Virus record (IMG/VR): IMGVR_UViG_3300035492_000416
Location: 1-43,080 of that record
Origin: a virus
Taxonomy: Duplodnaviria; Caudoviricetes
Length of the DNA: 43,080 nt
Strand: one strand, 5' to 3'
Position numbers and translations under genes: made by a program
Part shown: positions 31,628-36,766 of the stretch, in pieces
Layout of the letters: each line of letters begins with the position of its first letter
How positions within the stretch are numbered: the first letter of the stretch is position 1
Notes under the pieces: model-generated
Seen by the model: the letters and a program-made list of their open reading frames with translations, nothing else
What the model was told of the DNA's origin: nothing
The model's database searches: none

Positions 31628-31836
31628 CAGCCAGCCCTCCGCTCGTAGCGCGCTTGGCACGGCACGCACATCGTGCAGCCCCGGCCCTTCATCGCTTGCA
31701 AGCGCTCGGCAGGTATCGGCTCACCGCAACTTTCGCAGTCAGCAGTCACCCGCAGCGAGGCAGGCTTGCGCGCAGCCAGCGTCTGCTCCACCCGTTCCAG
31801 CACCAGGTCATTGGCGCGATCAGCAATGTCAGCCAT
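31627..31836 (-). CDS. TraR/DksA C4 zinc-finger protein (PtrB-like)
   Basis: MADIADRA, CESCGEPIPAERL..CTMCVPCQ. Confidence 0.9.
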   Translation of the reverse strand: MADIADRANDLVLERVEQTLAARKPASLRVTADCESCGEPIPAERLQAMKGRGCTMCVPCQARYERRAG

Positions 31837-32341
31837 AAACCACCCCCGCGCGATTTGCTTTGCGCACTGCCGCGCCCAGTCGGAACACCGCATGCACCAG
31901 GCGCTCGGCCAGCAGCTCGAACTCATCCAGCTCGTCGGCGGTAATCTCGCCATCATTCAAGCTCTTGCTCAGGTGCAGGGTCAGGCCGCTTTCGCGGGCC
32001 AGCATGTCGCCGATACCAGCCAATAGCGCGGCAGGCGTGTCCGTCTCGCGCAGGTCGGAAACGTCCACGCCCACCCAACCGATCGGGTGCAGAATCGCCT
32101 CAACGATGCGAGGGTCCCGTGTCAGATCCAGAATCAACTCCAGGTCGCGGATGTTCGGCGTGTGAGTGGTATTGGTCAGAGAGAGCTTGTGGTTCAGCGT
32201 GGTGGGATTGGTATCGCCGTCTACGGCAGCGATGGCGGTGGCTCCGCCTGGATAGTCGCGTACAGCGTGGTGGAGCGCTTGTGGCAATGTCAGCAGCGCC
32301 CGGCGGGCGCGCTCAGCGGAACAGAACCGGCTTCGGCTCAT
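31829..32341 (-). CDS. Phage regulatory protein, CII family
   Basis: YPGGATAIA..TTLNHKLS HTH and C-terminal DGEITADE motif; position after cro. Confidence 0.8.
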   Translation of the reverse strand: MSRSRFCSAERARRALLTLPQALHHAVRDYPGGATAIAAVDGDTNPTTLNHKLSLTNTTHTPNIRDLELILDLTRDPRIVEAILHPIGWVGVDVSDLRETDTPAALLAGIGDMLARESGLTLHLSKSLNDGEITADELDEFELLAERLVHAVFRLGAAVRKANRAGVVYG

Positions 32342-32365
32342 GGCAGTTTCCCCAAAAGTCTGCCA

Positions 32366-32394
32366 GTGACCGCGTGCGCGCCTGTTGCTACAGT
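32366..32394 (+). promoter_or_regulatory. Predicted sigma70 promoter antisense to the cro-cII transcript
   Basis: GTGACC-17 bp-TACAGT with extended -10 TG; predicted start ~32401. Confidence 0.55.
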
Positions 32395-32400
32395 TGCGCC

Positions 32401-32676
32401 GTGGTCACTTGCTGGTGGTCACTTGCAAGCGGTACGTCTGTGGTGGATTAGCCGCTTGCAACCCTGTGGCGAGGCCCATGCTCCGCATGAGCCCCGCCGC
32501 TACAGCCCGCCCTATCTGTGGTGGAGACGGCGGGCAACCCAGGGCATCCGTGCTCTGGTAGGTGCGGTAGATCGTTTGGTGTGCTGGCGTACTCCGACGA
32601 TCTACCGCATCACCCGACAGCACTGTGGTGGTGTGTCGGGAAAACCGGGCGGCTGGTAAGGCCGTTCGGCTTTTTA
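32401..32676 (+). ncRNA. Candidate structured multi-hairpin small RNA
   Basis: Eight consecutive hairpins, three with CTGTGGTGG loops; ends in a stem plus T-run; several stems need G-U pairs available only on the + strand. Confidence 0.6.
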
Positions 32677-32685
32677 TGGACTGGA

Positions 32686-33027
32686 TCAGGCCGCTTTGGA
32701 CCTACGTTCGCCCTCACGGCGATCGCCGTTGCGCCGCTCAGCAACACGACGGTCACCCTCGCGACGCTCAACATCGGGAAACTCGGCAGGCGCCGGAAAT
32801 AGCTCGGGCAGATCGGGGCGCAACTCATGGCGCCCAACCCCGGATAGTTTTTCGAGCGGGATCACCAGTTCAATCGGGCAAGCCCCTTTGACGCGGAGGT
32901 GATGCCAAAGGCGCTGCTGGGAAAAACGCAGGCCCATGGCCTTCAGCTTTCGGGACACCTCGGACTGTCCGCCAATCTTCGAAACGGCCTCTTCAAACGC
33001 CGCTCGCATAGACTCTGAATCATTCAT
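32686..33027 (-). CDS. Cro-like (YdaS-type) HTH regulator with C-terminal [D/E]RRxx repeats
   Basis: GGQSEVSR HTH, GVGRHELRPD motif, divergent from repressor; AAGGA SD. Confidence 0.88.
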   Translation of the reverse strand: MNDSESMRAAFEEAVSKIGGQSEVSRKLKAMGLRFSQQRLWHHLRVKGACPIELVIPLEKLSGVGRHELRPDLPELFPAPAEFPDVERREGDRRVAERRNGDRREGERRSKAA

Positions 33028-33056
33028 GGAAGAATCCTTTTATGTTGCCGCGACCA

Positions 33057-33127
33057 AATCTACAAACAAATCTGTCAACAAGCAACAGGCATTTTTGTTT
33101 CCCAAGCTACAAGCATGTTTGTAGCCT
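33057..33127. promoter_or_regulatory. OR-like region: three operators plus divergent pR/pRM-like promoters
   Basis: CTACAA-N6-CTGTCA (33060-33077), CAACAG-N6-TTGTTT (33083-33100), CTACAA-N6-TTGTAG (33107-33124); minus-strand TTGCTT-17-TAGATT; plus-strand TTCCCA-17-TAGCCT. Confidence 0.75.
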
Positions 33128-33134
33128 TCCTTCC

Positions 33135-33848
33135 ATGACTACTCCATCGCAACGCATGCAAGTGATCGCCGACCTGTTCAAGCGGCGCCGAACGGAACTG
33201 AACATGTCTCAAGAGGACGTGGCGGCGGCCGTCCGCGCGCTGCTAGGTGGCGAGGTGTTTAAGCAGCAATCCTATGCGGCAATTGAAAGCGGCAAGACCA
33301 AACACTCGAAGTACCTGGCACAGATTGCCCGCGTGCTTGGTATTCCCCCTCAAGCGGTCGATCCGTCAGCCCCACCACCAAGCCTGACAGCCAGCACTAC
33401 GATCGCTTATGGCGGTAATGCTCAGGTCATTGGCGAAACAACACGGAAGCTACCGGTTATAGGGTCTGTAGCAGCAGGCACCTGGTGCGAAGCTATTGAC
33501 ACCTTTCAGCCTGGCGATGCGGACGAATGGATCGACGCACCTGGGCCGGTGGGCCCGCACGCCTACGTGCTGAAGATCGACGGTGTCAGCATGTTCGACC
33601 CGGCCGGCCCCGTCAGTTTTGCGGACGGCGACAAAGTCGTCATAGACCCCGACAAGGAAGCGCAATCAGGCGATTTCGTGGTGGCCAAGCTCACGTCATC
33701 CAATCGCGTCACCTTCAAGCGTTTACGCAAAGAAGACGGAGAGTGGTACCTCGAAGCACTCAACCCCTCTTGGACTCCGAAGTACATACGCATCGACGAG
33801 GAGTGGCACATCTGCGGGCGGGGCATGTGGAAGGTGCAGCAACTTTAA
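33135..33848 (+). CDS. CI/PrtR-type repressor (HTH + S24 autoprotease), probably leaderless
   Basis: MSQEDVA HTH, VAAG cleavage site, GVSM and TFKRL catalytic motifs; no SD before ATG 33135. Confidence 0.93.
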   Translation: MTTPSQRMQVIADLFKRRRTELNMSQEDVAAAVRALLGGEVFKQQSYAAIESGKTKHSKYLAQIARVLGIPPQAVDPSAPPPSLTASTTIAYGGNAQVIGETTRKLPVIGSVAAGTWCEAIDTFQPGDADEWIDAPGPVGPHAYVLKIDGVSMFDPAGPVSFADGDKVVIDPDKEAQSGDFVVAKLTSSNRVTFKRLRKEDGEWYLEALNPSWTPKYIRIDEEWHICGRGMWKVQQL

Positions 33849-33866
33849 CAAGCAATAACACAACGA

Positions 33867-33911
33867 TTACAAAATTACCTGTTGACCATCCTACAATCTA
33901 AATTGTAGCTT
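33867..33911 (+). promoter_or_regulatory. OL/pL-like region: two operators over the early promoter
   Basis: TTACAA-N6-CTGTTG (33867-33884), CTACAA-N6-TTGTAG (33891-33908); TTGACC-18-TAGCTT. Confidence 0.75.
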
Positions 33912-33945
33912 TACCTCGTCTCCACCACAGACGAGGTATCGCCTC

Positions 33946-34122
33946 ATGGCAACCGCCACCCTGCACGTCCATCCAGCGTGCGCTTCCAATCGCAGCCTAA
34001 TTGAGCGCCTGCAAGCCGCAACAGGCATGCTGGTCGTGATCAGCAACGGTAAGCCCAAGCTCAAGGCCGGCGCGAACGTGCCCACCACCCCAATCAATCC
34101 ATGGGGAGGTGACGCCGCATGA
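33946..34122 (+). CDS. First gene of early operon, 58 aa hypothetical (absent from ORF track)
   Basis: GAGG SD, MATATLHVHPACASNRSLIERLQAATGMLVVISNGKPKL...GGDAA*, ATGA overlap with next gene. Confidence 0.8.
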   Translation: MATATLHVHPACASNRSLIERLQAATGMLVVISNGKPKLKAGANVPTTPINPWGGDAA

Positions 34123-34676
34123 ACCGCCTCCAACTTAACGCTACCGCGTTCATCCGCCTGCAGGCGCAGGTACGGCTCAATGGCACCTTTCAGCATCGCC
34201 TGATGGCCGAGAACCCGCGCCGCAGCGTGCTGACCAGCGTAGCCATCGAGCAGTGCGGCAAAGCCCTGCGAGTTGAAGTCACCCATAACGGCACGCGTAA
34301 CACCGTGACGCTCGACCGCCAGCGCCAGGACAACCCTGCCCGCCTGGCCCGCTTCCTTGAAGAAACGGTGAACGGGGATGAGCCAAGCAGCGTGTCCGAA
34401 ACAGGCGAAACGCTGCTGGTCGACAACATCGAAATCGTGCTGCGCCAGGCGCTTCGTGCCGGTCGGGGCGCCTTCCTGTTCGATGTGGATGAACTGCAGC
34501 CCGAGCTGGTGATTAGCCGGAACCCTCACGGCAGTTACATCGCGCAAATTCGCCTCGATGACGCCACCAGCATGATCGTGCTGCCGGCCGATCGTCAGCG
34601 CGCGTATACCCAGCTGTCCGACCACCTGGCGATGTTCCTGCACGGCTACCGCGACGCCCTCGCGGCCGCAGCTTGA
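34119..34676 (+). CDS. Hypothetical early protein
   Basis: GGAGG SD, coupled start, GC3-rich codons. Confidence 0.8.
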   Translation: MNRLQLNATAFIRLQAQVRLNGTFQHRLMAENPRRSVLTSVAIEQCGKALRVEVTHNGTRNTVTLDRQRQDNPARLARFLEETVNGDEPSSVSETGETLLVDNIEIVLRQALRAGRGAFLFDVDELQPELVISRNPHGSYIAQIRLDDATSMIVLPADRQRAYTQLSDHLAMFLHGYRDALAAAA

Positions 34677-34688
34677 GGAGGCGCACCT

Positions 34689-34979
34689 ATGAGCATGTCT
34701 CTCAAGTTCGCCGCCTCCCGGCTCGGGCTCGGGCACCGCACCCTGATGCAGCGCATGCGTGCCAAGGGCCTGCTGACCGAACATAACCTGCCGGCTCACC
34801 CTGATCGGGACAAGGCGTTTCTGGTCACGCGCGAAAACCGCTACCACCACCCGGACCACGGCCTGCAGTACCCGCGCACCACACGGGTGACACAGCAAGG
34901 TATCCCCTGGCTGGCCCAGCAGCTCGGCATCGAGCGCCCGCTACCGGAACCACAACAAGACCCGCGCGATGTCGCTTGA
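34689..34979 (+). CDS. Antirepressor KilA-C/ANT-domain protein
   Basis: AASRLGLG..LMQRMR.KGLL, TTRVTQQGIPWLAQQL; GAGGAGG SD. Confidence 0.8.
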   Translation: MSMSLKFAASRLGLGHRTLMQRMRAKGLLTEHNLPAHPDRDKAFLVTRENRYHHPDHGLQYPRTTRVTQQGIPWLAQQLGIERPLPEPQQDPRDVA

Positions 34980-35184
34980 ACCGTTCGCTATCTCGGGCGG
35001 CTCCGCTATGTGCGCCCGCTGGCCGCGCGAGTACGCCCGCCTAATCCTCGCGATGACAACCATCGAGGAGCGGCGGGCGGCATTGGCGGCTGTGCCGACG
35101 CACTTGCGCGAGCTGACCAGAACGCACGTAGAGATCGCCTGGAACCATCCAAAGGGGAACAACGATGGACAGCAAACTGATTGA
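34969..35184 (+). CDS. Hypothetical early protein
   Basis: Overlapping operon arrangement; WPREYAR..ERRAALAAVP. Confidence 0.65.
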   Translation: MSLEPFAISGGSAMCARWPREYARLILAMTTIEERRAALAAVPTHLRELTRTHVEIAWNHPKGNNDGQQTD

Positions 35185-35632
35185 CTCGCTGCTGATCGAG
35201 CTGCTGCAGCTACCCGAACAGCGCCGCACGCCGGAGAAGATCCTGGCCAACCTCACACTGGCGGCAACCGCTGCCGGCGTATCACTGACCACCAGCGCCG
35301 CGCCCCTGCAGATCGAGCACCTACAGCTGGCTGCAGCATTGGAGCGACTGGCCGAGCAGCTGGGCAGCCAGTACCGCGCTCGCGCCATGCTGCGCCTGGG
35401 CGGAGGGATTGATGGCGTCGAGCTGGGCGCAGTGGTCGAGCCACACGACAGCAGCTCGCCCCTACCCCGCTTCGTCGCATTCGGCGCCACGGCCCGCGCG
35501 GCACTGGCCGGCATCAACCGCGACATCCGCGCGAGCGCGGCGCCCAAGGCAGCGATGCCGAAGGCGCGACGGTCGGGGCGGCTTGGCCTGCACAAGCTGC
35601 AAGCCCAGCTCGATAGGGCTGCAACCGTATGA
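35165..35632 (+). CDS. Hypothetical early protein
   Basis: AAGGGG SD; ATGA coupling with next gene. Confidence 0.75.
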   Translation: MDSKLIDSLLIELLQLPEQRRTPEKILANLTLAATAAGVSLTTSAAPLQIEHLQLAAALERLAEQLGSQYRARAMLRLGGGIDGVELGAVVEPHDSSSPLPRFVAFGATARAALAGINRDIRASAAPKAAMPKARRSGRLGLHKLQAQLDRAATV

Positions 35633-35958
35633 GCCAGGCACAGCAAGAGCTGCGCCTGCGTCCGGCGCCACGCCCCGGCACCGTCGAGCTGCTGTATCGC
35701 ACCCTTGGCGACGTGCTCGTGCCCGTCGACCAGGTACGGGCCCGGTACTTCCGCAACCTCAACGAAGACAACTTCGCCCGAGCCCTCCACGCCGGCCGCG
35801 TTCCGCTGCCGGTCACCACCATCGACAGCAGCGCCAAGGCAATGCGGTTCATCGACATCCGCCATTTGGCCGTGCTGATCGACTCGGCCTCTGACGCCGC
35901 AGACGCGGCGCTGGACGAAGCGATAAATCCGGTAGTTCAACAAAAAGCTAGCAACTGA
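35629..35958 (+). CDS. Pyocin activator PrtN-family protein
   Basis: TVELLYRTLGDVLVP..VRARYFRNLN..GRVPLPVTTIDSS.KA, closely resembling PrtN. Confidence 0.85.
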   Translation: MSQAQQELRLRPAPRPGTVELLYRTLGDVLVPVDQVRARYFRNLNEDNFARALHAGRVPLPVTTIDSSAKAMRFIDIRHLAVLIDSASDAADAALDEAINPVVQQKASN

Positions 35959-36004
35959 CCACACCGCTGCCACCACCAGCGAACACCACCACCAGGAGTA
36001 CGCC

Positions 36005-36766
36005 ATGGAACTCGAAACCCACCAGCTCTACGCACTGTTCACCATGCTTGTCAGCATCGCCATACTGATCGGCCTTAGCTACTGCGCCGGTCTGCGCACA
36101 GGCCGAGCGGCCGGTATTCAGCAGGGCGGCAGATCGGCCAAGCGCTACGCGAAGTGTCTTCTGCAGGTCACCCAGGCAGAGCAAGCCGAGCTGCGCCAAA
36201 TGCTCGCCCGCGAGGAGCAACACACCGACAGCATCCGCGCCCAGCTCGATACGATGCGAACAGCACTCCACCAGGAGCAGGCCGAGCACAACATCATCGT
36301 CAAGGATCTGCTCGAAGAGCTGCAGCGCGAGCGCTCGAATGGCCTCACTCACGCGGACCATCAGATGCTGGTTCAGGTTGCTCGCGTGCTCGGACACGCC
36401 GCCGCCCAAGCCCGTAAAACCGGCACATCTAAAACCAACCAGTTCGCCGCAGCGCAAAGCCAAGTCACCGAACTCGCTATCCGCGCCCATGCCGCAGCGA
36501 CCGCGCCCAAGCTCAAGGCCGCGCTGGCCGAGAGCGACATCACAGACACAGACATGATTGAGTGGCTGGAGCGTGAGGCGACCGCCAACGGTGAGCACGA
36601 GCAGGTTGCGCTGTATTTCCCGGTTGCGCTGCCCGAAACGGGCCTGCCTACCCTTCGCGGCATCTTGCAGCTGGCTATCGAGCAGCACCGTGAGCGCGAG
36701 CAAGGGCTGGGTACTTGGGAGCGCGTCGACGCTGAAGTTCAGCCCGCCGCTGCCATGTGTGCGTGA
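36005..36766 (+). CDS. Membrane-anchored coiled-coil hypothetical protein
   Basis: AGGAG SD, N-terminal TM helix, long Q/E/A-rich helix. Confidence 0.8.
   Translation: MELETHQLYALFTMLVSIAILIGLSYCAGLRTGRAAGIQQGGRSAKRYAKCLLQVTQAEQAELRQMLAREEQHTDSIRAQLDTMRTALHQEQAEHNIIVKDLLEELQRERSNGLTHADHQMLVQVARVLGHAAAQARKTGTSKTNQFAAAQSQVTELAIRAHAAATAPKLKAALAESDITDTDMIEWLEREATANGEHEQVALYFPVALPETGLPTLRGILQLAIEQHREREQGLGTWERVDAEVQPAAAMCA

Follow-up and report, generated by a model that had tools for sequence, protein, structure and literature searches.

A conserved structured RNA gene in the cro-cII gap of temperate Pseudomonas phages and its predicted antisense role toward the other early operon

In a siphovirus-type temperate Pseudomonas phage, the stretch between cro and cII contains a conserved + strand gene that specifies a structured RNA of ~275 nt; this RNA probably acts in trans as a multi-armed antisense repressor of the other early operon. 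The window, meaning the whole stretch of DNA that was analysed, is a provirus record of 43,080 bp. Loop sequences of the RNA and the sequences of two distant start regions, referred to below as targets 1 and 2, co-vary between prophages. A preliminary description of this DNA had interpreted the gap as encoding, on the + strand, a multivalent antisense RNA of no recognised type by which an antirepressor or early operon is silenced, and that proposal is supported by the strand evidence, by the lack of a match in Rfam, by the co-varying complementarity between loops and start regions and by the presence in the operon of a gene for an ANT (KilAC domain) protein.

As pictured here, the RNA would bind the two start regions through loop-loop or loop-single-strand contacts and so block the entry of ribosomes. 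It would be a second lock, keeping the operon silent when transcripts escape the repressor at the promoter operator, and the products withheld would be a 58-aa ORF coupled to a 185-aa protein, the ANT KilAC protein, a PrtN-like protein and a 253-aa membrane protein. That the pairing covers or abuts Shine-Dalgarno and AUG sites argues for repression. Because the RNA gene is antisense inside the rightward lytic operon, one may speculate that transcription from the cro promoter collides with it and makes its perfect complement, so that the RNA would be removed on induction.

The RNA gene and its surroundings

On the - strand of the window the gene order is Cro/YdaS-like (32686-33027), cII (31829-32341; CP76 family, Pfam Phage_CP76), a DksA/TraR zinc-finger gene and a primase-helicase gene, and then HNH, terminase, portal, head and tail genes. 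The first two of these flank the RNA gene, which lies on the opposite strand within the 344-bp cro-cII gap at 32342-32685. The + strand carries the gene for a CI-type repressor (HTH plus S24 peptidase; 33042-33848), the true start of which is probably the ATG at 33137, and beyond it a further operon, the target operon. Genes for a UmuC-like polymerase and a UmuD-like protein (1167-2851), located at one end of the provirus, are likely cargo. An inverted repeat, GGCAG...CTGCC at 32342-32364, encloses the Shine-Dalgarno region of cII on the - strand and directly adjoins the -35 of the RNA promoter. Both subfamilies of the element retain this repeat, which is visible in predicted folds and could be a translational hairpin of cII or a protein site.

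The putative promoter of the RNA (32366-32394, + strand) consists of GTGACC at 32366-32371, a 17-nt spacer, a TG at 32386-32387 and TACAGT at 32389-32394, from which transcription is predicted to start near 32400. Its hexamers and spacing are as the preliminary description gave them, though a promoter scan with a threshold of 9/12 matches lists no site in 31800-33400; the promoter-like site scores 8/12 plus the TG, one match below that threshold. The extended -10 motif TGnTAnAnT is present in 101/101 loci examined, at 44-45 nt from the cII start in 93 and at 260-360 nt in the other 8, where a partial extra unit is inserted. Between loci the promoter hexamers are kept while the sequence of the spacer is variable. 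At the other end, where a + strand terminator had been proposed, a terminator scan lists an intrinsic one (32645-32677): a 10-pair stem at 32645-32669 is followed by a T run to about 32675-32677, and the three G.U pairs of the stem, also part of the earlier claim, come from direct reading of the + strand sequence. Both the stem and the T run are conserved across the 86-sequence alignment described below.

Between these two signals the predicted + strand fold gives seven hairpins plus the terminator, which agrees to within a few bases with the tiling of the gap that had been described. Its minimum energy is -162.2 kcal/mol, against -124.85 +/- 5.52 for shuffled sequences (z -6.77), and 0 of 200 shuffles fold as well; the - strand fold is weaker (-133.7 kcal/mol, z -5.54). 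H1 (32401-32422) has a 3′ half, 32411-32419, that is complementary to 35972-35980. H2 (32423-32461) has a CUGUGGUGGA loop, with 32435-32447 complementary over 13 nt to 33921-33933, and its stem shows compensatory changes and a two-sided deletion among related loci. The most conserved arm is H4 (32505-32535), with the loop AUCUGUGGUGGA, in which 32515-32529 are complementary over 15 nt to 33917-33931. It is flanked by H3 (32466-32500), which has a UCCG-type apex and both-sided changes at 7 of its 14 pairs, and by H5 (32539-32558), which has a UCCG tetraloop and both-sided changes at 7 of its 8 pairs. In the long hairpin H6 (32561-32611) it is the apex, 32585-32595, that has an 11-nt complement, at 35995-36005, and in H7 (32613-32640), the loop of which is CUGUGGUGGUG, 32625-32634 are complementary over 10 nt to 35983-35992.

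The three CTGTGGTGG loops reported earlier are all there, at 32438, 32516 and 32623 on the + strand and each at a hairpin apex. With two further copies elsewhere in the window there are five, where 0.49 would be expected, and 0 of 100 shuffles reach that number. Five of the arms have G/U-rich apical sequences and the remaining two end in UCCG-type loops. Those of H2 (in the window subtype), H4, H6 and H7 are G/U-rich loops around GUGGU that are closed by U.G, and H1 in the major subfamily ends in GAAA. The UCCG-type loops of H3 and H5 and the GAAA of H1 belong to the stable UNCG and GNRA tetraloop classes, and are probably structural. So, while the TCCG apices to which the preliminary description drew attention are present on two arms, they appear to be structural tetraloops and not recognition loops.

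Conservation, covariation and strand

Relatives of CII were collected from 22 viral loci and from 80 loci in Pseudomonas genomes; a scan of genome contigs with the single CII protein gave no relative and a scan with a CII alignment gave 109. An nhmmer profile of the gap matches the gap upstream of cII in 101 of the 102 related loci, always on the strand opposite cII, and the sole miss, L066, has only 79 bases upstream of cII. Identity with the window's CII is only 33-67% across the 80 genome loci, which means that conservation of the non-coding gap is no poorer than that of its neighbours. In a genus sample with one genome per species, BLAST finds the element in 65 of 401 species genomes, and in a family sample 10 of the 151 genomes have it according to a covariance model built on the H3-H5 core.

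The alignment takes in 86 distinct full-length elements, one from the window and the others from 85 loci; 2 duplicates and L066 were set aside, as were 14 loci that have an inserted unit or are without a T run where it was sought (L016-L021, L024, L026, L028-L032 and L038). Because of register shifts, RNAalifold found only a poor consensus for the full MAFFT alignment, and the local fold of one member was mapped on instead. A long-range helix predicted for L063 showed no covariation and was replaced by local hairpins. Across the 86 sequences 93.0% of cells are paired, as against 42.6-46.4% when the partners are slid, a figure that is favoured by taking the structure from one member, so that the both-sided changes are the stronger evidence. 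These amount to strong compensatory covariation among the related cro-cII gaps: 53 of the 91 pairs are changed on both sides (21-28 with partners slid), as are 444 cells (48-148 with partners slid). No shuffle of 500 reaches any of these pairing and covariation measures, keeping in mind that the loci share descent and that shuffle and permutation controls overstate their independence.

The alignment also bears on the strand. There are 1031 G.U cells as against 200 A.C cells, and G.U is the commonest pair at 11 of the 91 positions, A.C at 0. Read on the - strand, the G.U positions of the + strand are conserved mismatches. This excess of G.U over A.C, plus the conserved promoter-like site and terminator, fixes the + strand, to which the G.U pairs had been said to point.

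Eight of the omitted loci (L016, L017, L019-L021, L031, L032 and L038) have part of a second unit inserted between cII and the promoter, together with a remnant of the cII start region. The length of the terminated RNA, determined for L016, L017, L019-L021 and L038, is only ~140 nt in four of these, with a single GUGGUGGAGAG loop, 165 nt in L020 and 226 nt in L038. The loop of L019-L021, L031 and L032 is still complementary to the target hairpin of its own locus. Judged from sequence comparison, the arms evolve as modules.

Public transcript data touch the gene in two places. Long contigs of a ~93% identical relative, from the RNA-seq study of one organism, span cII and the RNA gene, and one metatranscriptome has a 218-nt contig inside the RNA gene, from 32408 on; these runs are assembled contigs, which carry no strand, ends or level and in which uncovered parts are uninformative.

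Two start regions as predicted targets

The promoter of the target operon (33882-33911, + strand) has TTGACC at 33882-33887, an operator CTACAAT-CTAA-ATTGTAG at 33891-33908 and TAGCTT at 33906-33911, the last being its likely -10 by sequence. In related loci TTGACn, the 17-nt spacing and the -10 are conserved while the flanking inverted repeats differ by locus. The 18-bp palindromic operator recurs exactly at 33107-33124, at the divergent promoters of cro and cI, and in related loci the repeats at both of these places vary from locus to locus. Such locus-specific inverted repeats behave as immunity-specific operators would.

The first gene of the operon is a 58-codon ORF (33946-34122), the stop codon of which overlaps the start of the next gene (ATGA). 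No family was matched by the ORF; its length of 58 aa and the overlap are the same in the window and in 5/5 loci examined, where the next protein is of 185-196 aa. In the window that coupled protein (34119-34676, + strand; phrog_15582) is of 185 aa, and a protein atlas and a homology search return hypothetical proteins only. Its predicted fold (pLDDT 81.3) has two repeats, each of four strands plus a helix, and the best PDB matches found by Foldseek are PUR-repeat proteins (Pur-alpha 3k44, E 5.6e-4, TM 0.19-0.27), a weak lead from modelling to a possible nucleic-acid-binding fold. Further along on the + strand are the ANT (KilAC domain) antirepressor-like protein (34689-34979; PF03374, 38.6 bits with a cut-off of 25.3), a PrtN-like protein of the pyocin-activator family (35629-35958; PF11112, 91.6 bits), for which the PHROGs label is excisionase, and a 253-aa protein with a hydrophobic N-terminus (36005-36766; phrog_28364).

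Target 1 emerged from a search of the strand that encodes the RNA for sequences complementary to its loops. It is a predicted, conserved hairpin at 33913-33938, directly behind cI, with the loop CCACCACA; its loop and 5′ arm would pair with H4/H2 and its 3′ arm contains the Shine-Dalgarno GAGG at 33933-33936. The loop and 5′ arm that are complementary to H4/H2 lie 2 nt before the Shine-Dalgarno site belonging to ORF 33946. In a scan of the whole window for exact complements, 33917-33931 (15 nt, H4) comes first and 33921-33933 (13 nt, H2) second, the next best being of 11 nt, where exact complements of 10-11 nt alone are at chance level in a window of 43 kb. Among 37 start regions, each taken from -40 to +15, several matches or one of >10 nt occur only at ORF 33946, with 15+13 nt, and at ORF 36005, with 11+10+9 nt.

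Between loci the partners change together. When the RNA of a locus is compared with target 1 of the same locus, the longest exact complement measures 7-16 nt in 45 loci, and over 51 loci its mean is 11.96 nt; 0 of 2000 partner permutations reach the observed sum, a result that relatedness inflates. Beside the shared core the loop/target dinucleotide is GG/CC in 32 of 51 loci and AA/UU in 9, and two loci pair AG...CU via H2; the others show a wobble or a mismatch or have a different arm that fits, the mismatch beside the core being found in L046, L058 and L087. In the major subfamily the apex of H6 is also complementary, over 9-13 nt, to the start codon and codons 2-4 of the 58-aa ORF in 16 of 45 loci, and this complementarity is absent in the window (6 nt). 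The target-1 stem of the major subfamily contains a mismatch, A.C, when it is read on the + strand; read on the - strand, the two bases would form G.U.

The flank contains the target motif in the window and in 58 of 101 loci. Beyond the flank it was found in 5/5 genomes, once per genome, 2.4-3.1 kb from cII and on the RNA's strand, with 0 for a reversed-pattern control. In the genus sample it occurs in 51 of 401 genomes, against 2 of 401 for the control. A hand tally of the 401 gives 50 with both RNA and motif, 1 with the motif only, 16 with the RNA only and 334 with neither, where G047 is counted as RNA-positive from its covariance-model match and the motif pattern cannot match two of the target classes. 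RNAduplex energies with long partners are not discriminating (-60.3 observed, against a shuffle minimum of -59.8). The NPTT codons of cII (32207-32215) read CCCACCACG, a 7-nt complement of the GUGGUGG loops, with CCACCAC in 100 of 101 loci; this complement was set aside, the loci having been collected with that peptide.

Target 2 (35972-36005, + strand) is made up of three adjacent sites, 35972-35980, 35983-35992 and 35995-36005, which cover the Shine-Dalgarno site of ORF 36005-36766 together with its start. They would pair with H1 over 9 nt, with the H7 loop over 10 nt and with the H6 apex over 11 nt, and the complement of the last spans the Shine-Dalgarno site and the A of the ATG. The 13-mer at the start of ORF 36005 is found in 0/5 relatives; these have two extra bases before the ATG, and the 11-nt match at the Shine-Dalgarno site is kept in 4/5. 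In one relative a change in the H7 loop is compensated in its target 2 site. Two other complements in the window are at chance level: one of 10 nt between the palindromic H2 stem and the primase start region (31693-31702), and one of 11 nt between H1 and the inside of ORF 35165-35632 (at 35286-35296).

Known phage RNAs and alternative readings

Control of antirepressor operons by RNA is a textbook feature of P1, P4, N15 and P22. The C4 RNA is a short one, of ~77 nt, that is cut from the 5′ leader of the operon it controls. The present element has no match to the C4 covariance model (RF01695), is ~275 nt long with seven hairpins, and has a promoter-like site and terminator of its own instead of being excised from the leader of its target. 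It lies 1.3 kb upstream of target 1 with cro, on the opposite strand, and cI between, is antisense inside the rightward operon, and has five arms aimed at two start regions. The likeness is in the manner of working, since in the C4 systems (P1/P7, with CI of P4 and CA of N15), as outlined in a review of phage small RNAs (PMC12197685), loops pair around the ribosome-binding site of the first gene of an antirepressor operon. That gene is likewise a small ORF coupled to the next, and the operon is likewise also under a protein repressor, according to the same outline (PMC12197685). Most likely, to go by this sequence comparison, the RNA works like the C4 RNA of P1/P7, yet is not a member of the C4 family.

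There are partial parallels with other phage RNAs. Sar of P22, an RNA of 68-69 nt, is cis-encoded opposite the ant leader, to which it is fully complementary. In contrast the element is trans-encoded on the same strand as both of its targets, at a distance of 1.3-3.6 kb, and has 9-15 nt of complementarity per arm. What it shares with Sar, on that review's account, is that a small RNA blocks translation of an antirepressor mRNA and adds to the action of protein repressors (PMC12197685). As a terminated antisense transcript that is convergent with the rightward operon near cII, it also resembles the lambda OOP and anti-Q RNAs as they are presented there (PMC12197685). The element (~32400-32677) differs from OOP, however, in lying upstream of the cII start at 32341, in overlapping no accepted ORF and in having conserved trans targets. 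OOP for its part overlaps the 3′ end of cII on the opposite strand and acts in cis. From a nut or put antitermination RNA the element is set apart by the G.U and A.C counts, according to which the structure is not in the - strand transcript.

Searches of databases and literature bear on the novelty. At the gathering score Rfam 15 gives 0 matches in the window and in 5 related loci, so that, as had been supposed, no described family matches the element in these six; with E up to 10 the stretch 32000-33100 has 8 weak matches that are noise (e.g. miRNA and CRISPR-DR29), none of them to C4. A tRNA/tmRNA scan found none, and neither the window element nor a major-subfamily element has a blastn match among GenBank phages. 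A full-text literature search returned no title or abstract on this RNA family, and nothing among the titles, abstracts and passages that it returned describes RNA control of antirepressor operons for Pseudomonas temperate phages. In passages of the 2025 review of phage small RNAs, just the antisense RNAs of phage PAK_P4 are given for Pseudomonas (PMC12197685). What is new is the trans targets of the element, and the family itself is unannotated and absent from Rfam 15.

Other functions can be envisaged for the RNA. Its gene is convergent with the - strand operon and fully complementary to the cro-cII spacer of that operon, and its terminator is placed right after the cro stop, as might be expected if it were only cis-antisense to the rightward cro-cII transcript, lowering cII and the replication genes in the manner of OOP, with the distant matches incidental. 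We think this unlikely, for such an RNA has no need of conserved loops, yet the loops are near-invariant while CII is 33-67% identical; they co-vary with sites 1.3-3.6 kb distant, and the RNA is without overlap to the Shine-Dalgarno or coding sequence of cII. A cis-antisense function could, however, coexist with the trans function. Improbable too is that the RNA activates target 1, its pairing with the loop and 5′ arm of 33913-33938 freeing the Shine-Dalgarno in the 3′ arm. It is true that the GAGG is part of the hairpin's 3′ arm and that the 5′ arm and loop are covered by the 15-nt match, but the conserved promoter of the target operon puts the likely start of the transcript inside the 5′ arm, in which case the full hairpin would not form, and the pairing at target 2, like that at the major subfamily's start codon site, is over the Shine-Dalgarno or the AUG itself.

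Binding of a protein by the repeated GUGGU loops, with the RNA as a scaffold or sponge and the distant hairpin as an extra site on the - strand, we consider very unlikely. It would account for the three to four near-identical apical loops closed by U.G and for the same loop being shown by the distal hairpin on the - strand, where G.U replaces the A.C of the major subfamily. It would not call for complementarity that reaches past the shared core into co-varying flanks, up to 15-16 nt, for distal sites that are exactly at the Shine-Dalgarno and start regions of + strand genes, or for the match of H6 and H1 to target 2 by sequences outside the repeated loop. It is hard to credit that there is no + strand RNA and that the gap instead holds a nut- or put-like antitermination structure in the - transcript, or a DNA element such as iterons or an origin for the primase-helicase. 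Against such a reading are the 1031 G.U as against 200 A.C cells and the 11 pairs that are commonest as G.U, all conserved mismatches on the - strand, the compensatory stem changes, which are not needed by a duplex DNA site, and the promoter-like site and terminator on the + strand; these are to be set beside the position between cro and cII, which is the place of nutR in lambdoid phages, the better folding of the - strand, too, than of its shuffles (z -5.54), and the repeated 9-mer at 0.7 kb from the primase-helicase gene.

The reading preferred here, a + strand RNA that represses the other early operon in trans, can be extended in a direction that we offer tentatively and as rather doubtful. 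The RNA may be a five-armed 'multi-guide' hub of a widespread undescribed class, each arm of which would address a different site within two start regions of the leftward early operon. Firing of the cro promoter would destroy or titrate the RNA, and, with the protein repressor, the two early operons would make up a toggle coupled through RNA, by which spontaneous induction and immunity would be set in prophages of Pseudomonas.

The family is common, being in 65 of the 401 sampled species genomes, though it is unannotated, and it offers a compact natural example of one RNA with several independent antisense arms. If the preferred reading is true, there is an RNA layer to the lysis-lysogeny switch, and models of prophage stability, spontaneous induction and heteroimmunity in soil- and plant-associated Pseudomonas would gain a post-transcriptional layer.
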